A stretch of DNA of 32,000 nt, taken from Wolbachia endosymbiont of Dirofilaria (Dirofilaria) immitis (GTDB taxonomy: Bacteria > Pseudomonadota > Alphaproteobacteria > Rickettsiales > Anaplasmataceae). The DNA is taken from positions 780,001 to 812,000 of the forward strand of contig NZ_CP046578.1 of NCBI RefSeq assembly GCF_013365455.1, written 5' to 3'. This document shows, piece after piece, positions 387-21,178 of this stretch. Every line of letters begins with the position of its first letter. Position 1 is the stretch's first letter. Position numbers and translations under genes: made by a program. The notes beneath the pieces were generated by a model. That model was given only the letters and a program-made list of their open reading frames with translations, did not search any database and had not been told where the DNA came from.

Positions 387-1541
387 TTATACTCCTAAAA
401 TTAATCTATTAGGATCTTCTATATAATTTTTTATTTTAACAAGAAAAGTTACTGCTCCTTTACCGTCAACTATTTTGTGATCGTAAGAAAGAGCAATATA
501 CATTGTAGGCCTAATTTCAATTGAGTTGCCTACAGCAACTGGCTTGTTCTGTATCGAATGCATTCCAAGTATTCCAGATTGTGGAGGATTTATTATTGGA
601 GTGGAAAAAAGAGAACCGTACACTCCACCGTTTGAGATGGTGAATGTTGCACCTTCCATCTCCGATACTTGCAACTTACCTTCTCTGGCTCTTTTGCTAA
701 GAGCAGCCAAAGCTAATTCGATTTCCGCAAATGATATCTGATCAGCACTTCGAATAACTGGCACAACAAGACCCTTATCAGTGCCAACAGCAACGCCTAT
801 GTCATAGTAATGTTTATATACAATTTCATCACCTGAAATTTCAGCGTTAACTTCAGGAATTTCTTTTAAAGCTTGTACTGCTGCTTTTATAAAAAAGGGC
901 ATAAAACCTAACTTTATTCCATATTTCTTTTCGAAAGTTTCCTTATATTTTGCTCTCAGATTTACTACACTTTGCATATCAACCTCATTAAATGTAGTCA
1001 GTATCGCAGCAGTGTTTTGTGAAGCCTTTAAACGAGCAGCAATTATTTGCCTTATTCTACTCATTTTTACTCGTTTTTCTCTTTGCTTTTCACTTGCTAA
1101 ACTTTTTGGCAGTTCATACATTACAGGCTGTTTTATTTTGCTCATATAGTCATCCACATCTGCTTTCGTTATTCTGCCTCCCATTCCAGTCCCTTTGATA
1201 CTCCCAGTACTGATTGCATTCTCTCCCATAATTTTATAAGCTGATGGAGCGTCTTTTCTAATAGAGGTTTTACCTTGATCTTCTTGTTGTACCTCTATCA
1301 CAGAAAGCTTCGCTAACAATTGACCTGGACTTATTACATCATCTTCTTTTACAAGAAATTCAGTTATTTGCCCTGAAGCTTCTGCAGTTAATTCAAGTGC
1401 TGCTTTGTCAGTTTCAACTTCAAAGATTAAGTCATCTACCTCTACTGTTTCACCAATACCTTTCTTTATTTTGACTATACCTTCCGTGACCGATTCGCCA
1501 CCAAGAGTTTCCGGCGCTCTGATTTCTATAATTTTACCCAT
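387..1541 (-). CDS. sucB: Dihydrolipoyllysine-residue succinyltransferase, the E2 component of 2-oxoglutarate dehydrogenase
   Basis: N-terminal lipoyl domain ([10 protein letters not shown]). Subunit-binding segment ([13 protein letters not shown]). C-terminal acyltransferase catalytic motif ([12 protein letters not shown]). The ORF track begins at a GTG at 1556; I prefer the ATG at 1541 ([11 protein letters not shown]...). Confidence 0.9.
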
Positions 1542-2309
1542 AAAACAACCTTCCACAAAAACTTGCTATAATTTTATACATAAAAAGAAGCATACAATAA
1601 ACTAATAAATTTATTTAAGATTAAAAAGAAGCCTATTACAACTTGCTTTTTACTAGTTTAGCCCATGTATGTCAATCTCACTTACAAAGACTACTCTCGG
1701 AAGAAAAAAGATCCTCTACAACTTTTAAGCAAACTTCTTCACTCAGAATTGACAATTCTACCCTTACTCACCGCCAACATTAAACACTGAGTTTTGTAAG
1801 CTTTCCTAAGTAACATATATAAAAAACATTACCTCTTGCATAGTCCAACCATATGTTATAGATCCATTGATTTGCACTAAGACATAACAAAACTCTTCTT
1901 CAAAATCAGCTATTAAATGGATAAATATAAAAAGATCTTTGATCTCCAAAGCGCCAATAGACAAGTACATACACAGTTACTCGTTCCAGGTAAGATAAAA
2001 ATCCAATGAGTGCAGACTAGTTTCTTTTACCTAGCTCTTTGTTAATAACATAATTCTTAGCTAAGACCTTCTGAAAGCCCATAGTAAACTCATACTCCCA
2101 GCTTAAAATTAGGTGAATTAGAGGAAAGAAGCTATTACTTTTTAGTAAAGAATCTACTGCTATATAATCTACAAGGGCTACACAGAATGTATTTCTCCAA
2201 ATTATACAATATCTTAACCGTAAAAATAATTTTACTATATAATGTTTTAAATGTTTTAAAGCTTAAGCTTTATGTTACTATAAATATAGATTTTAAAATT
2301 ACAGATAAT

Positions 2310-2936
2310 ATGATAAACATTAACACGAAGAAACAAATAACAGGAGTTTTCATATATATTACTGGTCTTTTAGGTAGTGGAAGGCTTTCTACAGCAATAG
2401 AATTATCTAACACAATAGACGCACTGATTGTAAACAACAACCTCTCTAATAGTACTCAAGTTCATTCCATATACAATAATATCTTTGAATACGACCAAGT
2501 CCCTGAAAAAGTACAAGATAAAATATACAATATTGTACAAATTATGCTTCAGGTAATAGAAGCTTATCCAATTCATTCAAAAAATTATATATTTATTGAT
2601 GAATTGATGGAAAATAGTGAATACAACACAAGAATATATAACTCAGTAGTAGAACTTAGTAAAAAAATAAACACAAGAATTCTTCCTGTAGTACTTAAGT
2701 GTGATTTACATACACTACAAAAGCGCATTAGATCAAAAAGGCAAAGGGAAAATAAAAAAGTAATCAACATAAACATAAGTAATATTATAAAAAAATTTAG
2801 AACTCATAATTTGTTTATACCACCTAATGCTATAGAGATAGAGAATTCAAATATGAGTATAAAAGAAGTAACTAAGGAAATAACATGTCAGGTATACAAA
2901 CTTAGCCAAATTGATAGGATTTACGTCAAAGGCTAA
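2310..2936 (+). CDS. P-loop kinase-fold protein (AAA_33 / small-molecule kinase-like) with a degenerate Walker A
   Basis: P-loop-like GLLGSGRLST sits about 20 aa from the internal Met at 2310. A Walker B-like hhhhDE follows (NYIFIDEL). There is also a lid-like basic helix (LHTLQKRIRSKRQRENKK). The ORF-track start at 2187 adds 41 low-complexity AT-driven codons and is probably not used. Confidence 0.5.
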   Translation: MININTKKQITGVFIYITGLLGSGRLSTAIELSNTIDALIVNNNLSNSTQVHSIYNNIFEYDQVPEKVQDKIYNIVQIMLQVIEAYPIHSKNYIFIDELMENSEYNTRIYNSVVELSKKINTRILPVVLKCDLHTLQKRIRSKRQRENKKVININISNIIKKFRTHNLFIPPNAIEIENSNMSIKEVTKEITCQVYKLSQIDRIYVKG

Positions 2937-2970
2937 CTTATAATAAATGCATTACATATCAAAGCTCATT

Positions 2971-3570
2971 TTAATAGATAGCCTTAACTTCACCTAATTT
3001 CTGTTTATTTTCTAGTCTGTAATGGGCTAATAGCCCTGCATGACTAGCATTTAATACAGGTAAATTGCAATCCATACACGTAATGCAGTCATCGTTTACC
3101 ATCCCAGCACCTTGATCTAAATATTGGAATTTAGCAATATCATGTACTACAATTGGGTATGACAGTGGCAATAGATTGAAACTAAATAATTGTGTATAAA
3201 CCCCTTGAGCATTTTTAATTATAGCTCTAATGTTTTTTTTGCTATTTGCACAAAGCAATGATATTGCGTATGCCTGAACTTCCAGTGTACTAACTCCATA
3301 TAATGGTTTATCTGTAACGAGATTTATGCCTTTCGCAGCTGATATACCAACTCTAATTCCAGTAAAACTTCCAGGCCCAACCACTACTACTAAATGATCT
3401 ATCTTATCGTAGTTATAGTTATGTTTACTGAATAGAGAATCTAAAACTTGAAAAAACGACTCTGCGTGATTGTTGCTAGTGGAATTGTGTTCTACTAAAC
3501 ACTTACCATTATGATCAATTATCGCTATCGAACTATCAGAACCTACAGTATCGATTGCTAAAATAGACAT
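2971..3570 (-). CDS. tsaB: tRNA threonylcarbamoyladenosine (t6A) biosynthesis protein TsaB (YeaZ family)
   Basis: MSILAIDTVGSDSSIAI start and the VVVVGPGSFTGIRVGISAAKGI motif typical of TsaB/YeaZ; length 199 aa. Confidence 0.85.
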   Translation of the reverse strand: MSILAIDTVGSDSSIAIIDHNGKCLVEHNSTSNNHAESFFQVLDSLFSKHNYNYDKIDHLVVVVGPGSFTGIRVGISAAKGINLVTDKPLYGVSTLEVQAYAISLLCANSKKNIRAIIKNAQGVYTQLFSFNLLPLSYPIVVHDIAKFQYLDQGAGMVNDDCITCMDCNLPVLNASHAGLLAHYRLENKQKLGEVKAIY

Positions 3571-3788
3571 TATTTAAGTTTACCATAGAGCTTCATAAAT
3601 ATCAAAGTAAAGGCACAGTTACCTATAACATAAGCTAAAGTTAACATTAAATCAAACGTTACATATAATGCAGTGATTAATGAGAGCATTTCTTGGGAGT
3701 ATTCAAAACTCTTCTCAAGAATAGATAACATTACTATATTCCTCCTGCCGTAGCTGCAAAATAGTGAACTTAAACAATAAAAAAGCAA
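3570..3788 (-). CDS. Hypothetical 72-aa hydrophobic ORF, possibly translationally coupled to tsaB
   Basis: Its TAA stop overlaps the tsaB ATG (TAATG on the minus strand at 3570). Hydrophobic composition. No recognisable family; it could equally be a relic of a decayed membrane-protein gene. Confidence 0.2.
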   Translation of the reverse strand: MLFYCLSSLFCSYGRRNIVMLSILEKSFEYSQEMLSLITALYVTFDLMLTLAYVIGNCAFTLIFMKLYGKLK

Positions 3789-4443
3789 CTATCCCACCAG
3801 GTAAAAACAGTAGTCGTCAGTATAACAGATAATACTATATTAGGCTGCTTTACGTCTTTTACTTCCTGTAGAGGTAAGTAGTACAGCTACATTACTAAAT
3901 ACCATACTCATTAAATAATAAATGCCTGGCATCATATTGCCTATACTAGTTACCTAACTTATAATCTTGAATGAAGCTGCTGTTTCATACAAGAAAAAAT
4001 ATAGAAATAAGTCACAGATGTTATAATAAAAAAAATTATCAAGTAATCCTTGAATGTTATAGGTAAAGTCTGATCACGCTACCTTTTAAAGGAGCAATGT
4101 TTTTTATACAGCACATTCTATATTAAATAAGCATTCTAGAGGATAAAAACACTCAATCAAACAAGCTATTAAACTTAAAGCTAGATTTAATAAGAAAATC
4201 GTTATAACAAGTAACAACATGAACCTTATAGCCGACTGCCTAAGACAGACTATCAGCACTACAAACATCAACGTAAAAGCAACAAAAATTATAAACAGCA
4301 AGACTAACCATTATAATATTCTCTGATATAACAATATTTTCAAAAGTATAATACAGTTAGCCAACCACTAAGTAAAAAAATATCTAAACCGCTATAATGC
4401 ATTCATTAAAGGCTTAACTTCAACCCAGCCAAAACCATATAAT

Positions 4444-4740
4444 TTAGATCAGTTTTAGACTTTTGATGGTCTCTTCAGCATTAGATTTTACAATATCGAA
4501 TAGCACGAAGTGCCCACAAGAAAAAGAGTTTTTAATGCTCAGAGAAGCATATAATACCAATTTATTCATACTTTTATCTGCAATATCACGATAACTATCG
4601 AAACATGTTAAGCTTAATTTGTGAGAATCAGAACAATAAGTAGTACCTACATTCGTGTAATACATGCTTACTTTACAATCATACTTTTCTCCAAACTTAC
4701 TACCACTAACATATAAAAAAATGCAGTTATAATCGGACAC
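4444..4740 (-). CDS. Hypothetical 98-aa ORF (GTG start) inside the non-coding tract; possibly a gene relic
   Basis: It is the longest open frame in the 3.2-kb tract. Moderately Cys-rich, with no motif I recognise. At this AT content a 98-codon open frame is uncommon but not impossible by chance. Confidence 0.2.
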   Translation of the reverse strand: MSDYNCIFLYVSGSKFGEKYDCKVSMYYTNVGTTYCSDSHKLSLTCFDSYRDIADKSMNKLVLYASLSIKNSFSCGHFVLFDIVKSNAEETIKSLKLI

Positions 4741-6985
4741 TCTTCAGAAGTTTTATCTGCACAATCAGCTGGATTTTCCCTACAAACTCACCAGTTAAAG
4801 CAGCATCTGACAGACCATTTTATAGAAAAGACTAGAAGCAACTAGATTGCCACACTGTAAGTTATTTTTCCCTGACACATAACTGAGCCCTCATTGAAAG
4901 TTAAATCACAAGAGAGATAATAGCTTATTACCTTACTGCTTTAACTTGAGCTTAAGTCTACTATAAGTACTATGAATACTTGATTTAATCTAAAGACCAT
5001 ATTTTTTCATATCTAATAATATCATTCTTTTTCTCATCATCATATAAATCTGCACAGTTTATCCAGTAATTATTTACCACGCAAGCATCAGTATAAATCT
5101 TTAAAGTGCTGATCAACATACTCTGGCTAACTAACTTTTTTTTACCAAACCAATCGATCCAAATTTCTGATTTTTAATGATGAAATACCATCTCCCACAT
5201 TTAACCTTCCATATGGCCTAACACTCTTAGAGTTTATAGCATTAGAGCTCCTACTTTAACACAAAAGCTCTTTAGGTATGTAGATAAACTTACCGTAGAC
5301 AAAAAAGTACAAGTACAAACAACTTAAAATTTTATCTTTAATCTAAATATTAAAAGAATTTTTATTAAAAAGTATAATCAAAATCTGAAATCTATTTTCC
5401 CGTCCAGTTTTGCATAAAATATTTCTTTATCCATCTTTATCCAGAATTACTCTAGCACTACACCATTTTGTAAAAACAATACTAAAAGCAGTGTGATGGA
5501 TAGTAGCTTAACTTCACGAATAAATTAAAACTTTTATGCAAAAAACATAAGTTTAAACTCAACATAAACATAAAGACAACTTTCCAGAAGGCTACTTTAA
5601 CTAAGCGTTGAACTCTATCGCTAGTTTTTAAGCCAATCTTCATAAGCTGTTGATATATCAGATAATTTTTGCTTCAGTTACTGCTCACTGACAGTAAAAT
5701 ATACATGATTAACCACTTTAGATATTCTTTTTGCATCATAATTAACCCCAAAATAAAAGGAAACCTTATTTTGCCAATACACTTAAAAGAATCATCACTG
5801 TAGCAATTTCATAAGAACACTCTATATCAATTTTTATCACACTATCTATCTCATCAAAGTAACTGCCAGATCTAATAACCCCTATAAAACCTTAACTTGA
5901 TGCAGCAAGCGAAGTCTAATATAACACATAGCTCCCAGAAAAGAATTCATATCTTATATATGAAATAAGTCATGATTTTATATTTTTGCTATTAGATACT
6001 TATCCCTAAACACTTCCAATTTATAAAGTGCTAATAATATCACGTATCAATAGCTCATTCATAATCAGCTGTTTCTACACTTATAACACTGACTAGTATC
6101 TTATTAAATACTCTTATTCTTATATTCAATAAACCTCTCGCATCTTGATTAGACCTTTAAATTGATAAAGTTTTTTCCTTATCCTGATAAATAGATGTCA
6201 TGATATCATTTTACAGTCATAAAATCTTCTATACTTCGTTCTATGCAGCGGACCTATAAGTACAATAGATCATAGCTAAATGTTAAAATTTATTACATAA
6301 GAAACATAAACTATAAATCTACTGCCGCTATCTTTTAATAGGAATAAAGCCTTCCAGGTTTCTATATTCTACTCAATTTACTTGACGCTCTATCAACATG
6401 AAAATCACTAATGTATAATAAATGCAACAGCTCAGATAAAAGTAGTGCAAACATAATTTAAACTAAGTTAACAAATCCAGTTATTTTATAATTTTATTGT
6501 CTTCCGCTCTACTGATAACACTTCCGAACAGAGTATTGTATTAATGAGCTTGCATAATATCTTAAGTAACAGCTGCTTATAATTCTCACTAGTCTTTTTG
6601 CCGTTTAGCATGATAAATATAAAAATTTAAAATATAAGATTATAGAACTGTAAAAGCTAGTAATCAGTTCGTTATAAGACATGTAAATATACTTTTCATC
6701 GCCTTTAAAACTGTGATGAGATACTAAAAAGCACATTTCTCATTCTGAACCCATGACACTATTAATATAGTGAATTAATTTATAGAAATAATCTTATAGC
6801 ACTTTGCTATTATTTCACAGATAAATATTTCTACATTTAGTATCTTTCGAAAACTCTCATAAATTTTTAGACGTCCTCACTCTCAAAAAAACATACAATT
6901 ATTATCATTACACAATTTAAAATTGTATCAACTACATGTTGCACAAAAATATACATTACAATATTATTGCAGTAAGTTAAGAATA

Positions 6986-6991
6986 AAGAGG
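6986..6991 (+). promoter_or_regulatory. Shine-Dalgarno-like AAGAGG, 5 nt upstream of the sodB ATG
   Basis: Read directly: aataAAGAGGttagtATG. A possible sigma70-like pair, TTGCAC (6939-6944), a 17-nt spacer, then TATTAT (6962-6967), lies upstream. Such hexamers are common in AT-rich DNA. Confidence 0.4.
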
Positions 6992-6996
6992 TTAGT

Positions 6997-7629
6997 ATGA
7001 CTTTTACTCTACCTGAGTTACCATATAGCAAAACAGCTTTAGAGCCTTACATATCTGCAAGGACATTAAGTTTTCACTACGACAAGCACCACAGAGGATA
7101 TTTAGATAAGCTCAACGAGCTAGTCGAAAATACAAACATAAAAATTGAGGAACTAATAATGAAAGTTCATGAGGATAGTAATAAAGTTAATATATTTAAT
7201 AATGCAGCACAAGTTTGGAACCACACTTTCTACTGGAACTCAATGAAAAAAAATGGCGGCAGTAAGCCTAAAGATAACAGCCTTCTCACAAAAAAAATTC
7301 AAGACGATATTGGCAGTTTTGATAGATTTTATGAAGAATTTTTGAGTTACGGAGTAAGCCAGTTTGGCAGTGGATGGGTATGGTTAGTGCTCGAAAAAGG
7401 AAAGCTTAAAATCACCAAAACTTCAAATTCTAACTTGCCACTAATCTATGGCCAAGTGCCATTGCTTACTATGGATGTTTGGGAACACTCATACTATTTA
7501 GATTGTCAAAATCGTAGAGTCGACTACATAAAAGTTTTCCTTGATCATTTAATTAATTGGGACTTTGCAGAAGAAAATTTAAAAAAAAATATACAAGATG
7601 AGTGCACCACAGGTAACAAAACTAGATAA
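6997..7629 (+). CDS. sodB: Iron superoxide dismutase
   Basis: PELPY, FHYDKHH, AAQVWNHTFYW and DVWEHSYY motifs (Fe/Mn-SOD metal ligands, Fe-type AQxWNH context). About 14 extra C-terminal residues overlap the next gene. Confidence 0.92.
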   Translation: MTFTLPELPYSKTALEPYISARTLSFHYDKHHRGYLDKLNELVENTNIKIEELIMKVHEDSNKVNIFNNAAQVWNHTFYWNSMKKNGGSKPKDNSLLTKKIQDDIGSFDRFYEEFLSYGVSQFGSGWVWLVLEKGKLKITKTSNSNLPLIYGQVPLLTMDVWEHSYYLDCQNRRVDYIKVFLDHLINWDFAEENLKKNIQDECTTGNKTR

Positions 7630-9584: not shown

Positions 9585-10625
9585 ATGTTAAGCAATCTAT
9601 GGAAAAAAGGAGCAAATTTTCTCGGTAGCGATTTTGCAATAATGGGCGGCGCTATGAGCTGGGTTTCAGAGAGAAGTCTAGTTTCAGCAATCTCAAACGC
9701 TGGTGGTTTCGGTATAATCGCATGTGGTGCAATGTCCCCTGATTTACTGAAAAAAGAAATCATGGAGACACAAAAATTAACTAATAAGCCATTTGGCGTA
9801 AACTTGATTACTATGCACCCAAATTTGAGTGAGCTAATAGACATATGCATTGAAACAAAAGTAAGTCACATAGTTCTTGCCGGTGGACTGCCAATGAAGT
9901 CCAGTATAGAAAAAATCAAGAACGTAGGCATAAAGGTAATATGCTTTGCGTCATCACTAAATCTTGCAAAGAGACTAGTAAAAATGGGTGTAGATGCATT
10001 AATAATAGAAGGAATGGAAGCAGGTGGACATATAGGTCCCGTCAGCACTTCTGTTCTTGCACAAGAGATATTACCTCATTTTAAAAATAAGCAAACACCA
10101 GTGTTTGTTGCAGGTGGGATAGGAAGAGGCGAAATGATAGTTAATTACCTGGAAGTAGGAGCAAGCGGCTGCCAAATAGGTACATTATTTGTCTGCACAA
10201 ATGAGTCAATTGCTCATAAAAATTTTAAAGAAGTGTTTATAAAATCAGCTGCACGTAATGCAGTATCTTCTATACAAATAAGTGCTGATTTTCCTGTAAT
10301 TCCAGTAAGAGCTATAGCTAACAAAGCAAGTGATGATTTTATAAAGCATCAAAGAGAAATCATTGATAAATACCAAAAAGGACAGATCTCAAAAGAAGAT
10401 GGACAGCTTGAGATAGAAAAATTCTGGGCTGGAGCTCTAAGAAGGGCAGTGATTGAAGGAGATGTTGAAACTGGGTCTTTAATGGCTGGTCAAAGTGTTG
10501 GCATGGTTGATAGAGAAAAGCCCGTAAAAGAAGTAGTGAATATGTTAATTCAACAAGCAGATAGTTATATTGAAAGCAAATCTGTGGAAGTAGAAAGTCC
10601 AGTAATTAGCAAAGCAAACAGCTAA
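9585..10625 (+). CDS. Nitronate monooxygenase family flavoprotein / FabK-like enoyl-ACP reductase II
   Basis: NMO/FabK hallmarks: AIMGGAMSWVS, ISNAGGFGII, GVDALIIEGMEAGGHIG, VFVAGGIGRG. 346 aa. Starts 5 nt after the cytochrome b561 stop. Confidence 0.85.
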   Translation: MLSNLWKKGANFLGSDFAIMGGAMSWVSERSLVSAISNAGGFGIIACGAMSPDLLKKEIMETQKLTNKPFGVNLITMHPNLSELIDICIETKVSHIVLAGGLPMKSSIEKIKNVGIKVICFASSLNLAKRLVKMGVDALIIEGMEAGGHIGPVSTSVLAQEILPHFKNKQTPVFVAGGIGRGEMIVNYLEVGASGCQIGTLFVCTNESIAHKNFKEVFIKSAARNAVSSIQISADFPVIPVRAIANKASDDFIKHQREIIDKYQKGQISKEDGQLEIEKFWAGALRRAVIEGDVETGSLMAGQSVGMVDREKPVKEVVNMLIQQADSYIESKSVEVESPVISKANS

Positions 10626-11515
10626 TCAATAGATCTATATCTTTAGCCATAAAAATAGAACTAAAACTGCTAATAAATTTTACCAGCTTTCCAAGCACGA
10701 AAATAAAGATATATAATCATCTTCAGTTTTATTACAAATTAAAACGACAAAAGTATTATGTAATCGGCATTTCATGCTTAATTTTTCACATTATATATAC
10801 CTTCATGTCTCTACGAACTTCTAGGTTTTTTACCTATATCAGCCATAGCATTTAAGATAGCATAGAACACTAATCTGTAAGATAAAACATAATTATCTAT
10901 CACAAGGTTACTTTTGCCTTTTTTACTCGACAAATTCCTTAGATATTAAAGTAACTTATATACAAACACTTGTTTTACAATAAATGGTATCACTCCAAAA
11001 TGCATGGACGCTGTGGAACCTATATTTTTTCTTCTCTAGATTTCAGTGTCAAGTACTGGATTATAGATAGTCTGTAGTAATCCATTATAACTTGAAGAAA
11101 AAAAAAGAACAAAAAGTATGCTTTCACTATGAAAAAAACTCACATAAAAAAACAATAATAAAGGCATATCACCTGAAAAATAACCAAATAATAAAAACAT
11201 TCATATTGTACTTGCAGTAGGTTATATTCTCTCAAAATAGAGTACATCTTTACAAGAGTAAAATAACATCGAGATTGGTGGTAGGAGCCAGGGTTATTTA
11301 CTTCACTTTGTTATAGCAATTGCTGAATTGCATTTAGACTTTCTATTAAGCATAGTTACTACTCATTAATGTGAATCCCATATTAATATGAGCATATTAA
11401 ACAAATGACGGTAAAAATTAAATATGCAGTACTTACAGTGAACAAGTGAATACAGCTCTTGCTCATTAAGGTGAAAGTTATTATAATTAAAAATTGTTTA
11501 AGAAGTATTTAGTTG

Positions 11516-11893
11516 ATGTATACTCAATTGAGTAGAGTTTTGATTTTTGTAGCTTTGCTGAGCCTTAGCTTTACATCATATTCTAGCAAGGCAAGTTCAG
11601 TAGATGCCGAATTACAAGATATACAAGAAACGGTAAAAAACTTTATTTCTTCATTCTCAGTCAAAGATGCTGTAGAGAGTATGAGTCCATCAACAATCAT
11701 AGGGTTATGCATAACCCTAGTAATATTTGCAATAGTGTTCAGGAGCTTAATCTTTTTCATGATAATGTTTGGTGTGTTGATTATGATACTTGGTAGCACA
11801 GAAAAAGCAACTGATTACCTGAAAGAGAAATTCACCTTTTCAAAAGGTACAAGCTTGCAACCTGATAGCAAGAAAAAAGACAAAGATCATTAA
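11516..11893 (+). CDS. Small exported membrane protein with VirB2/TrbC-pilin-like topology (candidate only)
   Basis: Signal-peptide-like N-terminus (MYTQLSRVLIFVALLSLSFTSYSSKASS). About 40 hydrophilic residues follow. Then a hydrophobic hairpin of two helices split by FRS (TIIGLCITLVIFAIVF-RS-LIFFMIMFGVLIMILG), and a Lys-rich tail. It lies 50 nt upstream of virB4. It lacks the VirB3 signature. I take the ATG at 11516 rather than the TTG at 11513. The confidence value refers to the functional call; as a CDS it is more likely real. Confidence 0.4.
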   Translation: MYTQLSRVLIFVALLSLSFTSYSSKASSVDAELQDIQETVKNFISSFSVKDAVESMSPSTIIGLCITLVIFAIVFRSLIFFMIMFGVLIMILGSTEKATDYLKEKFTFSKGTSLQPDSKKKDKDH

Positions 11894-11943
11894 ATATCAC
11901 TTATAGCATTTTAGTTACCTTTATTAAATACAAATAGTGTCGT

Positions 11944-14304
11944 ATGCAACCAAAAATACTAACAATTAACCCTAAGCTTGGAGGAAAAAATAAGCTAAGC
12001 TTAGCATTATTAAAAAATATTGATTTAGATTTTATTCCTTATTCCTGCCATTATAATGAAGAAACCATACTAACAAAACAGGGAGAATTGTTAAAAATAA
12101 TCAAGTTAGAAGGTTACTTCTCTGCTGATAATTATAGTGACCTTAGAACCGAGATTAGAAAAAGCATATTAAAAAACATCAATAGCTTACATTTTACTGC
12201 CTGGATTCATACTGTTAGAAAGCGTAATAAACTCCGCTTAAAATGGAACAAAACTGGAGACTTTTCTGATAAGCTACACTCAGCCTGGTTTAACAAACTC
12301 ACTAGTAGTAAATTACAGTATATAAATGAGCTATATATTGTACTAGTATTTAGCAATTTTGGCAAGCATGTAAATAATGCATTTTTTCTCAGCAGAATAA
12401 AGAACAAACATAAGCTATCTTTAAGAGAAAATCATCACGAATTAAAGAAGGTAACTGACTTAATTCAAAATGATCTAGAACCTTTTGGGGCTAAAAAGCT
12501 CGGTCTTAGGTTTAGTGATGGTAAAGTATATTCTGAAATGACAGAATTTCTTCATTACATTGCTACACTAACACGTAAAGATTACCCAATATGCGAAACA
12601 GATTTATCGCAATATATTAAAGATTTAAGAATAGCTTTTGGCTTTAATACATTTCAAACAATATTTGAAAATCAACAAAAGTTTGGCTCTATCTTTTGCA
12701 TAAAAGAATACCGAGAAGTTCCATTAGAAAATATAGATAGATGCTTACAGCTTGACTCTGAGTTTATTATCACGGAAATAATAATATTTATTAGTAACAA
12801 TAAAGCAATCAAAGAGTTTAAAAACCAAATCAATATGCTGCAAATCAGCGAGGATAATACCCTACTTCAAAATTCAGGAATAAATGAAATAATGGAACTT
12901 GAACAAACTTCTGCTATTGACTTTTGTCAACAGAAAATTATTTTTACAATTTTTGCAGATAACAGAAATAGATTAGCTGAAAATATTACTAGCCTATCCT
13001 CAGTAATGTCATCAATTGGTTTAATGATGTTCAGAACTGATTTGCATATGGAAAATCATTTTTGGGCACAACTTCCGTGCAATTTTACCTTTGTCACACA
13101 ACCGAAAAGCATATTAGCAAAATATGCTTGTAGCTTTGCTATGTTACATGACTTTACATCAGGCACACTAAAAGGAGGAAGGTGGAAAGAAGCAGTAACG
13201 ATCTTTTTTTCAAAAAAAGGAAGCCCTTATTTTTTTAATTTTCATGGAAAGAAAAACAATGGCCACACTACAATACTTGGAGCTCCAAATTCAGGTAGAA
13301 CTTCACTAATTAATTTCTTACTATCAGAGTCAAGAAAATTTGATCCTAGGATTATTATATTGGACAACACTGGAAAATCAATAATCTTCACTAAAGCAAT
13401 GAGTGGTAAATACTACATAATCGATCCAAAATATAAAGATAAAAGCTTAAAATTTAACCCATTAAATATCGAAGATAGCGTTTCTAATCGCAATATGCTG
13501 ATTGAGTTAATCAAAAGAATGGTAGACAATACAAGCCTAATAGACATAGAAGAAAAGATAAAAAAAATCGTAGATTTTATATTCACTATACCAAAAGAAT
13601 CCCGCTCTATTTCTCAAATTTCTGAGGCGCTTTTACTTCTTGGTGGTCAAATAAGCAAATGGTGTGGTGATGGTGAGTTTGCTTATTTACTTCAAGACGG
13701 TAGTGAATCTTACATTGATTGGAAAACAAAAATTATATCTCTCAACACTGCAAACCTAACAAAACGAAAGGAATGTATGTCTGTAATATTTTACTATTTT
13801 TTACACTCTTTTGAAGCAAAATGTGATGGCTCACCTGTAATACTTGTTTTGGATGAAGCATGGGAAATAAGCAATATTTTCTCCACAGAGAAAGAGTTTG
13901 ACAACTGGATACAAAAAATGACAAAATTAAATGTCGTAGTAATTTCAAGTACTGAAAACCTAAATCTAGCATTTGCTAGCAAATTTACTCAATATTTAGA
14001 CAAACACGTTGATACAAGAATTCTTATGCCAAATTTTAATGCAAATAGATTATACATGAAAGCATTTTCTCTATCAAAAGAGGAACTAAATACAATTCTG
14101 CAAACTCCAACACAGGAAGGCTTATTCTTAATAAAGCAACATAAGGGGTTAGTAACTTTAAATTTAGATTTAAAAAATATGCAAGAAATGCACGTGCTTT
14201 CAGCCAATAAAAAGACTATAAAGTATATGTACGAAGCAATAAGAGAAAAAGGCGAAGAAGTTAATAAATGGCTACCAGTGTTTTATGAAAAGTGCAAGGT
14301 TTAA
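11944..14304 (+). CDS. virB4: Type IV secretion ATPase VirB4 (CagE/TrbE family), apparently a divergent second paralogue (VirB4-2 / RvhB4-II-like)
   Basis: 786 aa, typical VirB4 length. N-terminal domain IPYSCHYNEETILTKQGELLKIIKLEGY. Walker A position reads GAPNSGRT (13279-13302), Arg where Lys is expected. Walker B is VILVLDEAWE (DE at 13852-13857). The neighbours are not virB3 or virB6. Confidence 0.9.
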   Translation: MQPKILTINPKLGGKNKLSLALLKNIDLDFIPYSCHYNEETILTKQGELLKIIKLEGYFSADNYSDLRTEIRKSILKNINSLHFTAWIHTVRKRNKLRLKWNKTGDFSDKLHSAWFNKLTSSKLQYINELYIVLVFSNFGKHVNNAFFLSRIKNKHKLSLRENHHELKKVTDLIQNDLEPFGAKKLGLRFSDGKVYSEMTEFLHYIATLTRKDYPICETDLSQYIKDLRIAFGFNTFQTIFENQQKFGSIFCIKEYREVPLENIDRCLQLDSEFIITEIIIFISNNKAIKEFKNQINMLQISEDNTLLQNSGINEIMELEQTSAIDFCQQKIIFTIFADNRNRLAENITSLSSVMSSIGLMMFRTDLHMENHFWAQLPCNFTFVTQPKSILAKYACSFAMLHDFTSGTLKGGRWKEAVTIFFSKKGSPYFFNFHGKKNNGHTTILGAPNSGRTSLINFLLSESRKFDPRIIILDNTGKSIIFTKAMSGKYYIIDPKYKDKSLKFNPLNIEDSVSNRNMLIELIKRMVDNTSLIDIEEKIKKIVDFIFTIPKESRSISQISEALLLLGGQISKWCGDGEFAYLLQDGSESYIDWKTKIISLNTANLTKRKECMSVIFYYFLHSFEAKCDGSPVILVLDEAWEISNIFSTEKEFDNWIQKMTKLNVVVISSTENLNLAFASKFTQYLDKHVDTRILMPNFNANRLYMKAFSLSKEELNTILQTPTQEGLFLIKQHKGLVTLNLDLKNMQEMHVLSANKKTIKYMYEAIREKGEEVNKWLPVFYEKCKV

Positions 14305-17131
14305 TTTTTCATTGATATTTTTTTTGATATTTGGCCTGTCATATCAAGGATGTGCTGATTGTCCGCCTCTTGTAAAGAGCAATACTTGGTTTGAGGCAAT
14401 ACTTGGAGATAATTGGGTAAAAGAAATTAAGGTAATAGCAATAAAAGATCAGGGGATAAACGGTTACTTTAATCCTAAAATTAGAGTATGTGCTTATGAT
14501 GGAAAAAGTTACTGTTATGACTTACAAAGTGGAGAATTTTGCCGTCAAATATATGGAACACAAAGTACAGGTGCTGGAGTGTCAGCAGCAGCTTTTATTG
14601 ATTGGGAAGGAGATAAGACATTCGTTGGAGCAAAAATGGGGGAAGGCCTTGAATGGGAATGGGCAGAAGGTGTGATTAGTAGTGATATGTCTGATGAAGA
14701 AAAAAAGAGACTTGCTAGACTTCCCAAAATATGTGCTTGTAGTCAAAAGGGGGCTTGTAGATCCGGATTTGCAAAACTTTGGGATTTTAACATTACAGAT
14801 TATAGTAACCTTTGCGACACTTGTTATCAAACAAAAGTAAAATGTGCTCCTGTACCACCTGCTCCTAGTCCGCCTCCATTTTGTGAACAATTTACGATGT
14901 CACCTCCCAAGGTCAAAATTGTCCCTATAACGAATAAAGATAATGATTACTTCGACCCTAAGGTTAAGGTAATAGTTAGCAATCTAACAATAGAAAATGG
15001 AAAAATTGAAAAAGAGTTAGATTTTCCAAAAAAGTACAAAGTAGACAAGGACGAGGAGCTCCCTACTACAGATAAAGTCAAGAAGCATTCTGTTTTAGAT
15101 AAAGATGGCACCACATATTATTTCACAACATACAGAGAAAAAGGCAAACTCTGCGCTGAGTATTATGGAACTCAAGGTATAAATAAGAAAAATCTGCAGT
15201 TCGCACGTTGCTTTCCAGCACCACTAGCTCCAGAACCTGAGGTAGTAGAGATAGTACAAAGCAACATGCAAGGAGAACAGAATAACACGTTAAAGATAAG
15301 AATAAAGATGGGCAAAAAAAATTGCATGAGGCAAGTAAACAAAAAGTACGAAGATGGTTTTTGCACTTTTGATGTTAACACTAACTCTACTACAAACATT
15401 GGCCCTCTGTCTTTAACAGTAATAAAGCCGGCAATAGCAGCGAAAACAACTAGTAGTAATCACAATAAAAGCAATATTGACAATATTATAGAAGGTATAC
15501 TAGAAAGTAATTCACAACAATTTAAAGTTCTGAAAAAATATAGCTATGTTCCTGATACTAAAGAAGAATGTGAAGAACTTAATGCAGAAGGTAAGTGCAA
15601 ATTAGATAATTTAGGGCACCCAAAAGTAAAAGTAGAGTATAAAAAAAATATCAAAAGCAAAATGCTCTGTCTTTCCGGCTGGAAGCCAGAACCAGAGGAA
15701 TACATACTTAAAAGAGAAAATGAAATAATACCACTAAAGCTCATGGAGGCAAGATATATTAAATACGATACTGTTTATTCAAAAGAATCAAATCAGTTCT
15801 ATTACCTTCCAAGCAAGGAAAAGAAAATAGTTAATCTTCTACAAAAGCCTCAAGAAAAGTTGGACAGAATAATATTTAACAGGCAAGGATATATTTTCTT
15901 TCCTGATAAAAATAAGCAAAAGAAGGGAGAATGCAGCTACTGTGTAAATCAAAATAATAAGATAGACGAGGCATTTGTATCTGGTAAAGGGCTGAAAGCA
16001 GCATATAAATTAATGGATGAAAAGCATGAAGAAAAAAATTGTAATCAGGATGATTATGGTTGCATTTGCATTAATGGAATGTGTAGTCGTTCAACACAAT
16101 ATTTAAATAAAAAAGACAATAATCCATTCTACTTGAAGTATGAAGAAGCGGATTGTAAAGACGAGAGTACTAATGAAATACAAAAGTGCATACGATTAAA
16201 AGATCAACCGGTCAAAGTAGATAGAGCAGAGGTTTTTTATGCTGATAAGTTATGTAAGCTTGATTTGGAAGGTTTAAAAAAAAGATTAGAGGAAATAACT
16301 AAGAAACAACTGAAGCAAGAACTTGAAAAAAAGAGCGAAAAATTATATGACTCTAAAAATAGAGATATTTATACAGATGATTTATCAATAATATTTGATT
16401 ATGTTGAAATAGAAGCATGGGGGAGTGGTGAAGCAGGTCATATAGCAGGTAAATCTGTTAACTGTAAACCTCATGTATGTTCTACTAAGAGTAGAGCAGG
16501 AATGCCAGGAGATTATATTAAGGCTAAACTAAGAATTGATCCCGACTATCCTCTAATTAAGATTAGAGCTACAGAGGAAGAAAGTAATAACGAAAATCGC
16601 ATCTCAAGTAAAGATGCAGGGTCTACCTTCATAGAAATGTGTAGTTTAGATAAACAAGATTGTAAGAAATTAATCACCGTTGCAGGTGGAGGTAAACATA
16701 GAATATATAATTCTGAAGATACAAGTTATAAGAAAACAGCAATTGATAAAGAGCATTTAAGACTAGAAGGAAAGGTAATAACAGTAAATATATTGGAATC
16801 TATACAAGACAATCAAATTACATATATAGAAAATGGTGAAATCAAGCACAAAACGGTAAGCTGTACCGGTAGTTTCAGAAGCAGTATACCTGGTGCAGGT
16901 GGTTGTATTGACAAAAGCAGAGGAATTTATAGCAAAGGCTCTTCAGGATATGTGAAGATCAAGCCTATTATCGAGAAATTCGATAAAAAAGAAATAAATG
17001 ATGCCATTGAAAAAGTGATAAAAGATCTTTATACCCTCAAGGCCATGACTAATTTTTCAGTGGGTAGCTTTAATATAAATATAAGAGAGAAAATCGAAGA
17101 GGAATTCAGAAAAGAACTGCTAGGGTTATAA
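14285..17131 (+). CDS. 948-aa exported cysteine-rich protein with internal repeats and a C-terminal glycine-rich domain; family unknown
   Basis: The ATG lies 20 nt inside the virB4 3' end. Signal peptide MKSARFNFSLIFFLIFGLSYQG followed by Cys. 34 Cys by my count. No further TM helix. Two Pro-rich linkers. Repeated YFxPKxxV...YYGTQ modules. Coiled-coil-like stretch at aa 661-688. Gly-rich motifs at aa 703-895. Confidence 0.85.
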   Translation: MKSARFNFSLIFFLIFGLSYQGCADCPPLVKSNTWFEAILGDNWVKEIKVIAIKDQGINGYFNPKIRVCAYDGKSYCYDLQSGEFCRQIYGTQSTGAGVSAAAFIDWEGDKTFVGAKMGEGLEWEWAEGVISSDMSDEEKKRLARLPKICACSQKGACRSGFAKLWDFNITDYSNLCDTCYQTKVKCAPVPPAPSPPPFCEQFTMSPPKVKIVPITNKDNDYFDPKVKVIVSNLTIENGKIEKELDFPKKYKVDKDEELPTTDKVKKHSVLDKDGTTYYFTTYREKGKLCAEYYGTQGINKKNLQFARCFPAPLAPEPEVVEIVQSNMQGEQNNTLKIRIKMGKKNCMRQVNKKYEDGFCTFDVNTNSTTNIGPLSLTVIKPAIAAKTTSSNHNKSNIDNIIEGILESNSQQFKVLKKYSYVPDTKEECEELNAEGKCKLDNLGHPKVKVEYKKNIKSKMLCLSGWKPEPEEYILKRENEIIPLKLMEARYIKYDTVYSKESNQFYYLPSKEKKIVNLLQKPQEKLDRIIFNRQGYIFFPDKNKQKKGECSYCVNQNNKIDEAFVSGKGLKAAYKLMDEKHEEKNCNQDDYGCICINGMCSRSTQYLNKKDNNPFYLKYEEADCKDESTNEIQKCIRLKDQPVKVDRAEVFYADKLCKLDLEGLKKRLEEITKKQLKQELEKKSEKLYDSKNRDIYTDDLSIIFDYVEIEAWGSGEAGHIAGKSVNCKPHVCSTKSRAGMPGDYIKAKLRIDPDYPLIKIRATEEESNNENRISSKDAGSTFIEMCSLDKQDCKKLITVAGGGKHRIYNSEDTSYKKTAIDKEHLRLEGKVITVNILESIQDNQITYIENGEIKHKTVSCTGSFRSSIPGAGGCIDKSRGIYSKGSSGYVKIKPIIEKFDKKEINDAIEKVIKDLYTLKAMTNFSVGSFNINIREKIEEEFRKELLGL

Positions 17132-17803
17132 CATAAACCATAGTAACTTTAACTGTTACTTAGAATAGCTAAAATTCAGGCCTTGTCAATAGAGAGGGCA
17201 GCTTAATGTTTAAGTACCATGTATTACTTAGCTTAGGCTATACATAAGCGTGCTACAAGTTAAATATCCAATTTAATCATTCTTTGTTGTATCACTGATA
17301 GTGTCAATTAGAAGACTCAAATATCAAGGTATTATAAACTAATTGAACATAACAAAAAGAGGAAATTTATTATGGTAACATGATATGCATAAAAAGTAAA
17401 ACAAAAAATGAAGCCAAAAAAGAAAGCAGCAAGCTTTTCAAGTTAATTACTAAGATGAATGACCGCTAAGAGAACAAAGAAATACCATACAGGAACTTTA
17501 AACTTGCCTACTAAAGAGATATCAAGTGGTTTCTATGGACAAAAGCCTAGCTACAAAAGAAAAAGATAATTACAGAAAGCTTAGAAAAATACTATTAATT
17601 CAGACCTTTTATCAATTTAATCAACTCCTCACATAAACTTTTTCTGTATCCATGCTTTGCATTCCGGAAAAGATAGCAAACACTATTCTTCACTACATTT
17701 CTCTATTCCCATCATATATAAACTCATTCATAAAATTTAAGATTAGATTGACATAAGATAAAGAGTAAATTAAAAATTGAACAGATCTTTAAATACAAAG
17801 TCA

Positions 17804-19945: not shown

Positions 19946-21178
19946 TTAAAATAATATATCTCTTATCTGCTTTACAGCTTTACCTGCCTTTGATTCCTTT
20001 TCTATGAAAGCAGCCTCGAGAAAAATTTCAAGCCTTTCCCATTCTTTCTGACCATTTATATGACTACAAAACTGTAGGCCTGTATTTATTTTTAATTTTT
20101 TCCAATACTTTTTGATATGAAGAACCTAGTTCCTCATATGTATCAATATCCACTGACTGTAGTATCGTCAAAAATGAAAATAAACTTGGAGCAAGTAGTT
20201 CTTCCTTCGCACAATTCAGAAGACACAGTTCTATTTTTTTCATACAGTATTCTATTGTTTCTAATGATAGTAACAGACTTTCTGCATAAAATATGAAACT
20301 GTTTATAAACGGCTCTTTTGACTTTTTCGATAATTTTACATTTTTAAACAGTTCTTGTATAAATTCCTTCACCGACCGTTTCAATAAATGTAAGGAGAGA
20401 TCAATAAAAGATCTAAGGCCAAAATTTTATCCAAGTATTGTACTATAGCCTTATATACATTACTCTTATCTCTACTAATAGAAATAACAAAGACAAGCCC
20501 TTGTACATTAAGTAGATACTTTATGGATTCTAAAAAATCAACGATGAACTTAGGACGGCATATATCAAGGTCATCCACCATTATATAAATGCTTTTACCT
20601 TTTCTAATCTTATTAACTACCTTCATTAATTGTGTTTTAAAATCTTTGGTGTTTTCTTTGCTTTTTTGCAGAACATTCAATTCTCTCAACACAGCACCAA
20701 TATCCTTTTTATCAGCCTCTCTTGTGGCATTAAGCAGCACAGAAAGCATAGCAAGCGGAGACTTATTAATTAACCTTCCGAGTCTAAAGAAAATAGCTCC
20801 TGATTTATGTTCTTGAGCCGTTGTATAACGCTTCTCTTTATCTCATAAGATGAGAATAAATCCTCAAATAAGAAATTTAAAAAAGAAGGCAGAGGTTGGT
20901 CCAATGCACTAATGTCCCACGCACTATAATAAGCTGCTATTTCATTTTGTTGCTTTAATTCCTTCACCCACTCTTTCAAAAAAAAATGTCTTACCCCATC
21001 CATTATATCCATCTAAAGATATTATTGTAAAAGACTGATCAATTGTTTTAATTACAGTGTTAAACTTGCTTGAAAATTGCTTGTAGTTTAAGAGGTCATT
21101 TTCCCAAGCCATTATTTTAAGTAGTGATATCACTTCTTTCTTTCTAAAGGTTATTAGTGATATAAGTTTTTTAAACAC
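19946..21178 (-). pseudogene. Frameshifted KAP-family P-loop NTPase pseudogene (at least 4 frame disruptions)
   Basis: Five consecutive minus-strand pieces in different frames: 21178-20942, 21012-20770, 20749-20381, 20384-20064 and about 20063-19946. KAP-type Walker A LDGYNGWGKTFF (plus 20987-21001). KAP-type Walker B IYIMVDDLDICRP (about 20553-20582). A YLDKI segment typical after Walker B. The first break sits in an A9 run at 20978-20986; removing one base restores GWGKTFFLKEWVKEL. Confidence 0.75.

Follow-up and report, generated by a model that had tools for sequence, protein, structure and literature searches.

Conserved pairing of the second VirB4 paralog of the Rickettsiales with a predicted exported protein of the EtpE-N family in the Wolbachia endosymbiont of Dirofilaria immitis

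Two described systems of the Rickettsiales frame the locus analyzed here, a tight cluster of three genes in the Wolbachia endosymbiont of Dirofilaria immitis (wDi) spanning positions 11516-17131 of a 32,000-nucleotide (nt) stretch of forward-strand DNA (contig NZ_CP046578.1, positions 780,001 to 812,000; hereafter the window). One is RvhB4-II, or VirB4-2, a second VirB4 paralog of the rvh type IV secretion system (T4SS) whose members have been described as lacking ATPase active sites (PMC4676284). In the Wolbachia of Brugia (wBm) this gene is wBm0750; wBmxR2 binds upstream of it, and published wBm accounts present it as a single scattered gene without including the large gene downstream. The other is EtpE, a surface-exposed invasin of Ehrlichia chaffeensis, in which an N-terminal region (EtpE-N, residues 29-708) is conserved between Ehrlichia species and thought to anchor the protein, and a non-conserved C-terminal region (EtpE-C, residues 1658-1963) binds DNase X (PMC3789761). 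EtpE is treated as unique to Ehrlichia in the Ehrlichia literature consulted here (PMC8834651); in E. chaffeensis it is encoded by ECH1038, and virB2-4 by ECH1042. In this work we put forward evidence that these known pieces, virB4-2 and EtpE, form a previously unremarked conserved module. Sequence comparisons identify the trio as an ancient, vertically inherited module of the Rickettsiales, and its largest product as a homolog of the conserved N-terminal ~800 residues of Ehrlichia EtpE. We have high confidence in the identity and conservation of the module. In the open-access literature we found no report of the homology between EtpE-N and Wolbachia proteins or of the VirB4-II/EtpE synteny.

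The first open reading frame (ORF) of the trio, ORF1 (11516-11893, + strand), encodes 125 amino acids (aa) from an ATG at 11516, with an alternative TTG start at 11513. A gap of 50 nt separates it from the VirB4-like ORF (11944-14304, +; 786 aa), and the ATG of ORF3 (14285-17131, +; 948 aa) sits 20 nt inside the 3′ end of virB4-2, embedded in the F-Y-E-K-C-K codons of the 20-nt overlap (14285-14304, +). A wDi protein on record is 100% identical to ORF1, and the genome's records also include ORF3 and the VirB4 gene. These coordinates reproduce in full the arrangement reported in the initial annotation of the window, which had described an orphan virB4-centered module with an unassignable exported partner. 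Its observation that the window is devoid of virB8-11 and virD4 also holds, in that no T4SS gene besides the trio occurs among the other window ORFs of at least 100 aa. The designation of orphan, on the other hand, has to be abandoned, given the known identity of the middle gene and the distribution of its pairing with ORF3.

The middle gene matches PF03135 (CagE_TrbE_VirB domain, E 1.2e-29) and aligns end to end with TrwK, a VirB4 protein of solved structure (TrwK 18-817, query 29-785; E 1e-53), confirming the earlier assignment to the VirB4/TrbE/CagE family. Its scores remain under the cut-offs of curated VirB4 models (450 vs 643 bits for TIGR00929, 417 vs 1050 bits for NF010473), as befits a divergent paralog. 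No intact Walker A motif (GxxxxGK[ST]) is present in the protein; alignment to the TrwK sequence GQSSSGKT reveals the degenerate form GAPNSGRT (13279-13302, +), with Lys replaced by Arg, and the Walker B region ILVLDEAWE (13840-13866, +) is kept and satisfies the hhhhDE pattern. Among the aligned VirB4-2 proteins, the Lys-to-Arg change is common to all Wolbachia, Candidatus Mesenet and one Anaplasmataceae metagenome-assembled genome (MAG), and the motif is more degenerate still in Ehrlichia (SSVT), Neoehrlichia (SSMT) and another Rickettsiales MAG. The combination of a defective ATPase site, a separate locus and sequence divergence fits the published description of RvhB4-II (PMC4676284) and identifies the gene, by sequence, as this known paralog. 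The wDi locus shares with the Anaplasmataceae virB2-virB4-2 (rvhB2/rvhB4-II) cluster this same VirB4 protein with its defective ATPase motifs, a location outside the two main T4SS operons and a small, putatively exported membrane protein encoded upstream, and differs from it in that the upstream gene of Wolbachia is not a recognizable TrbC/VirB2. Wolbachia VirB4-2 records are widely mis-named 'type VI secretion protein', and a gene model of the spider Trichonephila clavata labeled 'nudix hydrolase domain-containing protein' (P0082) corresponds to VirB4-2 and an ORF3 homolog merged by a eukaryotic gene caller.

The pairing of the two large genes is conserved well beyond wDi. VirB4-2 directly precedes ORF3 in 15/15 other Wolbachia loci with available upstream flank, and ORF1 lies upstream of VirB4-2 wherever the contig extends far enough. 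The overlap sequence itself (TTTT-ATG-AAAA...TAA) is kept in 15 Wolbachia loci besides that of wDi, as well as in Candidatus Mesenet and an Anaplasmataceae MAG, and this recurrence of both gene order and overlap sequence indicates that the arrangement is not due to chance. In nine non-Wolbachia loci, from Mesenet and unnamed Rickettsiales (L004, L005, L006, L008, L023, L029, L042, L043 and L044), the ORF3 homolog either overlaps a VirB4 gene or adjoins it directly, sometimes through other junctions (an ATGA overlap in L004, a GTGA overlap in L023). The flanking genes differ among all nine, and a TrbC/VirB2 gene stands just upstream in six of them (L004, L005, L023, L029, L042 and L044). Ehrlichia, Neoehrlichia and one Anaplasma MAG present, on the same strand, virB2 copies, virB4-2, a spacer of 0.55-1.5 kb and EtpE. 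Maintained in 15 Wolbachia and nine other loci with unrelated neighborhoods, the pairing therefore denotes an old conserved module, rather than an orphan. Its persistence in Wolbachia and in distant Rickettsiales, with frames usually overlapping or abutting, lends support to the proposal in the initial annotation that the 948-aa protein works with the VirB4 paralog. Within Wolbachia, ORF3 is the fastest-evolving member of the trio (43-60% identity to the window by tblastn, vs 73-85% for VirB4-2).

Two loci depart from the common layout in other ways. In the Wolbachia of Ctenocephalides orientis (CP116769; L026, 3430-8661) a 1-nt deletion in the overlap generates a single VirB4-2/ORF3 frame of 1,743 aa, to be explained either by a genuine fusion of the two genes or by misassembly. 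A metagenome contig holding the weakest family match (P0209; L045, 359-6064) carries two tandem family-like genes that adjoin a gene for a VirD4-like coupling protein and a type III secretion system ATPase-like gene, and the 743-aa protein encoded upstream of them is not VirB4.

Direct scans of ORF3 against Pfam, NCBIfam and PHROGs returned nothing usable, and its affiliation was established through its own family. A 5.8-billion-protein set contains 215 ORF3 homologs, the best 120 of which are all Wolbachia 'hypothetical proteins' with 50-64% identity, and a HMMER search of 1.8 billion cluster representatives yielded 51 family matches, about 25 of them full-length (680-1,100 aa, 27-43% identity). 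Across an alignment of 25 diverse members, 11 Cys are invariant and two conserved regions stand out: the motif P-x-x-P-x-P-P-P-F-C followed by IVP(V/I), and a C-terminal block of the form EAWGGG ... SGxxGxY ... GxGG ... PGxGGC ... CExW. Scanning one genome per GTDB species with a 12-sequence alignment located relatives in Ehrlichia canis, E. muris, E. ruminantium, E. mineirensis and Neoehrlichia, as well as in two Anaplasma MAGs, Candidatus Mesenet and MAGs labeled Rickettsiaceae, Anaplasmataceae or Rickettsiales. In E. canis this relative is Ecaj_0838, annotated in RefSeq as 'entry-triggering protein EtpE' and scoring 2590 bits on NF049896.

Four comparisons join ORF3 to EtpE. Profile-profile alignment with hhalign of 50 Wolbachia homologs against eight Ehrlichia/Neoehrlichia EtpE N-termini gave a probability of 99.6% (E 5.5e-25) over 575 columns, matching ORF3 residues 179-917 (14819-17035, +), a region that holds C-x-P-x-P-x-P-x-P-P-P-F-C ... 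IVP(I/V), to EtpE ~196-808. A hidden Markov model (HMM) built from 31 non-Wolbachia members only recovers the window ORF3 in one domain that spans residues 16-892, with a score of 283 bits. The same non-Wolbachia profile detects other Wolbachia homologs with E 1e-65 to 1e-89 in the 5.8-billion-protein database, where it returned 28 proteins and did not widen the taxonomic range. An intermediate protein, P0174, matches both ORF3 (1.5e-25) and NF049896 (2.8e-32), and BLASTP of ORF3 against Ecaj_0838 produces two collinear high-scoring segment pairs, at residues 180-320 in the PPPFC region and at 705-811 in the glycine-rich region, so that the link to EtpE extends beyond the glycine-rich domain. 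On the strength of the hhalign result and the 283-bit match, the protein listed as unassignable in the initial annotation can be placed in the EtpE-N family.

Like EtpE (ECH1038, NF049896, E. canis Ecaj_0838), ORF3 features a predicted signal peptide, the PPPFC motif, conserved Cys and a glycine-rich domain, and virB2/virB4-2 lie upstream of both genes in the same orientation. The two proteins differ in length (948 vs 1,963 aa), in that ORF3 is devoid of the strain-variable middle region and of the DNase X-binding, entry-triggering EtpE-C, in the position of the gene (ORF3 overlaps virB4-2, EtpE lies 0.8 kb downstream) and in the biology of their bearers, a nematode mutualist and a mammalian pathogen. 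Within the EtpE-N family, the EtpE of E. canis Jake (L018, 5347-11216, and L025, 1043-8010) is annotated in two pieces, Ecaj_0838 (1,510 aa) followed by a 345-aa ORF matching the EtpE-C end of NF049896, and two EtpE-N paralogs, Ecaj_0835 and Ecaj_0834, lie no more than 12 kb further on. Four members (P0191, P0196, P0176 and P0174) contain a Gly/Ala-rich hydrophobic insertion of 40-60 residues just before PPPFC (alignment columns ~300-400); this insertion of non-Wolbachia members may form a membrane hairpin, and it does not occur in Wolbachia ORF3-family proteins.

ORF3 (the counterpart of Wbm0749) begins with a predicted signal peptide (14285-14356, +) consisting of n-region MKSAR, h-region FNFSLIFFLIFGL and c-region SYQGCA, with probable cleavage after A24, so that the mature protein would start at D25, a residue invariant in 50 homologs. 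ORF3 has no further hydrophobic segment, in agreement with the initial annotation, which had noted a single N-terminal segment and set ORF3 apart from the polytopic VirB6; its portrayal as a Cys-rich, exported protein is likewise consistent with the 34 Cys and the putative signal peptide. ORF3 was rejected as a VirB6 candidate, having no transmembrane segment past the signal peptide and no Pfam match. It was also rejected as a VirB5 candidate, having no Pfam match and a mostly beta model, as opposed to the helical VirB5. In the AlphaFold2 (AF2) model, residues ~700-900 reach a predicted local distance difference test (pLDDT) value of about 80 and contain a glycine-rich domain (residues ~705-895; 16397-16969, +) with EAWGSGEAG ... 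AGGG ... PGAGGC. Foldseek matches this C-terminal domain in the PDB to the fiber of cyanophage Pam3 (7ypx_A, E 7.6e-4) and to the Bxb1 tail tip (9d93), and a BFVD fold search gave 26 matches with E<=1e-3, mostly to glycine-rich-domain or minor tail proteins. At the sequence level, PF21722 (Gly_rich_2) matches weakly in 14/50 homologs (best 3.5e-6) and not in the window ORF3 itself, distant members weakly match PHROG minor-tail families, and the family profile finds no related solved structure among PDB sequences. The modeled C-terminal domain appears to be of the phage tail-fiber or minor-tail-protein type. Its likeness to phage glycine-rich domain proteins (PF21722, Pam3 fiber 7YPX, Bxb1 tail tip 9D93 and mycobacteriophage minor tail proteins) comprises the predicted fold of the C-terminal ~200 residues together with the EAWGGG/GGG/PGxGGC motifs; the differences are that only this domain is held in common, that the window ORF3 falls below PF21722 and that the context is not that of a phage.

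ORF1 (the Wbm0751 counterpart) belongs to a Wolbachia-specific family, with 40 homologs, all from Wolbachia and 54-75% identical. In the predicted layout, a signal peptide (~1-26/28) is followed by a helix in the periplasm, a hydrophobic stretch of 33 residues centered on an invariant F75-R76-G77, and a Lys-rich tail, with which a single-span N-out/C-in topology would fit better; a hairpin remains conceivable because the invariant F-R-G splits the hydrophobic stretch. Its position 50 nt upstream of VirB4-II is the slot occupied by VirB2/TrbC in other lineages, and one UniProt record labels an ORF1 homolog 'TrbC/VirB2 family protein'. A VirB2 HMM matches ORF1 homologs weakly (E 3e-4 to 0.4), giving 7.8 bits for the window ORF1 against 0.3 +/- 2.6 for block shuffles, 6/200 of which reach the real score, and a mean z of 2.5 in the shuffle control over 26 related sequences. 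In two divergent Wolbachia, bona fide TrbC/VirB2 genes occur downstream of the ORF3 homolog alongside an upstream ORF1-family gene. The TrbC gene of the mite Wolbachia (L017, 10744-11070) is ~2 kb away, past two housekeeping genes, and that of the flea Wolbachia (L026, 8895-9305) ~0.2 kb away. This coexistence suggests that ORF1 is a very divergent VirB2 paralog or a replacement, and its status as a VirB2 homolog is unproven.

In wBm, accessions and gene order equate ORF3, virB4-2 and ORF1 with Wbm0749 (931 aa), Wbm0750 and Wbm0751. Normalized RNA-seq counts are about 1,900-2,400 for WBM0749 and about 360-740 for WBM0751, and Wbm0749 was placed among likely surface proteins by Foster et al. 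2005. The protein has also been detected in B. malayi proteomes.

Considered jointly, these data are best explained, with a probability of roughly 0.55, by an envelope or surface EtpE-N-like protein co-produced with a VirB4 that is probably non-hydrolyzing and probably aids in its assembly or display. The first component of the module is a small membrane protein bearing a signal peptide, which is a TrbC/VirB2 pilin in the majority of lineages and a member of the ORF1 family in Wolbachia. The second is RvhB4-II, a divergent second VirB4 with a degenerate ATPase site, and the third a putative Sec-exported, Cys-rich EtpE-N-family protein with a glycine-rich, phage-fiber-like end. The trio would be co-transcribed, with translation of ORF3 coupled to that of RvhB4-II. 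ORF3 would cross the inner membrane by Sec, undergo oxidative folding of its 34 Cys in the periplasm and, like EtpE, take up an outer-envelope or surface location, with the glycine-rich domain as its presumptive ligand-binding end. We regard an envelope or surface location for ORF3 as probable. It also suits the suggestion of the initial annotation that ORF3 might be a surface component or adhesin, the sole characterized relative, EtpE, being a surface-exposed invasin (PMC3789761). RvhB4-II, in turn, may act as a nucleotide-binding, probably non-hydrolyzing platform at the base of the rvh T4SS in the inner membrane and may assist in inserting both the small membrane protein and the EtpE-N-like one into the envelope. 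Canonical VirB4 is part of the VirB4-VirB8-VirB5-VirB2 pilus assembly route, and the suggested role of RvhB4-II would parallel its handling of VirB2 and VirB5 in pilus biogenesis, by extrapolation from Agrobacterium work. A direct mechanistic dependence of ORF3 on RvhB4-II is a tentative notion, on which we would place somewhat less than even odds.

The proposed role also invites comparison with VirB5-type tip proteins and adhesins (Agrobacterium VirB5, Helicobacter CagL), which are similarly exported and encoded with a pilin and VirB4. To our knowledge, the Rickettsiales lack VirB5, and a pilus is made by wMel. The VirB5-type proteins bear no sequence or fold similarity to ORF3, which is predicted to be beta-rich and is four times larger, and any equivalence of ORF3 to VirB5 would be functional at most, and speculative, as is the suggestion of the initial annotation that a missing role is filled here. 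A bolder version, which we consider quite improbable, would have the trio form a display sub-system of its own within the Rickettsiales T4SS. In this version a catalytically dead VirB4 would serve as a dedicated dock from which the EtpE-N-family protein is loaded onto the outer-membrane complex or the pilus (such as that recently seen on wMel) as the missing VirB5-like tip adhesin, later extended into EtpE by Ehrlichia.

A number of observations weigh against the favored explanation. The relationship between ORF3 and EtpE depends on profiles or intermediates: against NF049896 (cut-off 1500 bits) ORF3 gives no NCBIfam match even at E<=1, and with an Ehrlichia-only HMM it does not reach the 1e-3 threshold. 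ORF3 ends ~50 residues past the glycine-rich domain, with no counterpart of EtpE-C, and the missing NF049896 match and the lack of anything beyond EtpE ~810 imply that it is a member of a wider EtpE-N family and not an EtpE ortholog. EtpE-N is poorly accessible to antibodies on live E. chaffeensis and plays no role in triggering entry (PMC3789761), so the part shared with ORF3 may be an anchor and not an adhesin. The full-length AF2 model of ORF3, mostly beta, has a mean pLDDT of only 59.5. For ORF1, none of 26 family members matches PF04956 (TrbC) at E<=1, hhalign of the family against 16 Rickettsiales VirB2 proteins gives 20% with only the signal peptide aligned, and AlphaFold models one continuous helix at 58-112 (pLDDT 83-87 over the hydrophobic stretch). 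The initial annotation is upheld for ORF1 in the predicted signal peptide. Its pilin-like reading is a matter of position and topology only: the model, with its single helix, does not support the two-helix hairpin, and the TrbC/VirB2 sequence tests are negative or weak. Lastly, in the closest relative found, an uncultured Wolbachia with 86-90% nucleotide identity to the window (WOLB0982, ERR658162; L039), the ORF3 homolog (784-3562) is broken over frames 1/3/2/1/2 next to an intact visible end of VirB4-2, as either a pseudogene or a product of poor assembly.

The physical link between ORF3 and RvhB4-II is itself something we infer from gene arrangement, and synteny and overlap may reflect inherited operon structure alone. 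If the co-location is purely historical, ORF3 would be an autonomous Sec-exported outer-membrane or surface protein, self-anchored by its N-terminal part and sharing only the virB4-2 promoter, with RvhB4-II having a separate or merely regulatory role in the rvh T4SS. A signal peptide would by itself suffice for export of ORF3 to the periplasm, for EtpE an N-terminal anchor in the outer membrane has been predicted and no dependence on the T4SS reported, and the overlap is lost in Ehrlichia and Neoehrlichia, where spacers of 0.8-1.5 kb take its place. Extra paralogs of ORF3 also occur without an adjacent VirB4 (L015, L016, L024/L025, L041 and L045), and yet every genome examined retains one VirB4-II-linked copy in spite of such spares. 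The pairing also survives in at least 24 loci of very divergent lineages whose surroundings have been rearranged, with an overlap sequence conserved from Wolbachia to Mesenet, and persistence of this kind in shuffled, shrinking genomes usually signals a functional link. On balance, we find a purely historical co-location, the main rival account, somewhat unlikely.

Two other accounts dispense with the envelope role altogether. WBM0748, 0749, 0751 and 0752 were all short-listed as candidate T4SS effectors on the basis of co-regulation with, or adjacency to, T4SS genes by Carpinone et al. 2018, who also note the detection of WBM0749 protein in B. malayi tissue, and ORF3 might accordingly be a translocated rvh effector acting inside the host cell. 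The predicted cleavable-type Sec signal peptide and the 34 Cys, 11 of them invariant family-wide, speak instead for an oxidizing periplasmic or extracellular protein rather than a substrate delivered to the cytosol; ORF3 has no eukaryote-like domains, its characterized homolog EtpE stays on the bacterial surface, and the text of the screen paper mentions no yeast phenotype for WBM0749, all of which makes an effector role very unlikely. The phage-type fold of the C-terminal domain, with the weak matches of some members to PHROG minor-tail families and PF21722, could alternatively mark ORF3 as a prophage tail-fiber gene remnant lying beside virB4-2 by chance. This we consider scarcely credible: the flanking genes are housekeeping and not phage genes, the phage likeness is confined to the last ~200 residues, the other ~700 are Rickettsiales-specific, and the family is vertically inherited with VirB4-II across the Anaplasmataceae and beyond. 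An EtpE-N-like envelope or surface protein co-produced with RvhB4-II hence remains the reading that we favor.

The surroundings of the trio in the window bear signs of gene loss. In arthropod Wolbachia, the trio is preceded by a ~400-aa C-terminally membrane-anchored gene and followed by a 113-aa gene. Both accessory genes, which also flank the trio in wBm, are seen in wDi (10626-11512 and 17132-17776) only as weak remnants. Upstream, where no ORF of at least 60 aa exists within 10625-11512, tblastn with the 404-aa protein of locus L001 gives a weak match (11187-11399, +; 34% identity over 80 aa, E 0.021) to a possible decayed remnant, probably the counterpart of Wbm0752; downstream, the remnant of the 113-aa gene (17356-17460, +; tblastn 46% identity over 35 aa, E 5.5e-5) is probably the counterpart of Wbm0748. 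The trio itself is intact in the 0.92-Mb wDi genome despite the decay of both neighbors. The remaining window ORFs of at least 100 aa are housekeeping genes, including sodB, an M16 peptidase, cytochrome b561, NMO, pdhC, trpS, grpE and isc genes, among others. A 3.4-kb region (3570-6997) without any ORF of at least 100 aa, tRNA or Rfam match probably consists of decayed genes, and tRNA and Rfam scans gave no match anywhere in the window. At 20064-20749 (-) a KAP-family P-loop NTPase gene is broken into two ORFs of 106 and 122 aa and is likely a pseudogene, since the syntenic gene in a supergroup A Wolbachia encodes 406 aa. Promoter and terminator scans of the window performed no better than on shuffled sequences.

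The role of RvhB4-II has been an acknowledged puzzle since 2009, and a conserved partner provides it with a concrete, testable job. EtpE is a leading Ehrlichia invasin and vaccine antigen. Placing its conserved N-terminal two-fifths in a family that extends across the Rickettsiales and is linked to virB2/virB4-2 suggests a route for its installation and distinguishes the ancestral portion of the protein from what was added for entry into mammalian cells. Should the display sub-system prove true, it would explain the universal retention of Rvh-II paralogs, the existence of a host-contacting pilus in a system without VirB5 and the route of EtpE to the surface. In filarial Wolbachia, which are drug-target symbionts, the counterpart Wbm0749 is abundantly expressed and has no known function, and its assignment to the envelope or surface would serve diagnostics as well as work on the worm-bacterium interface.

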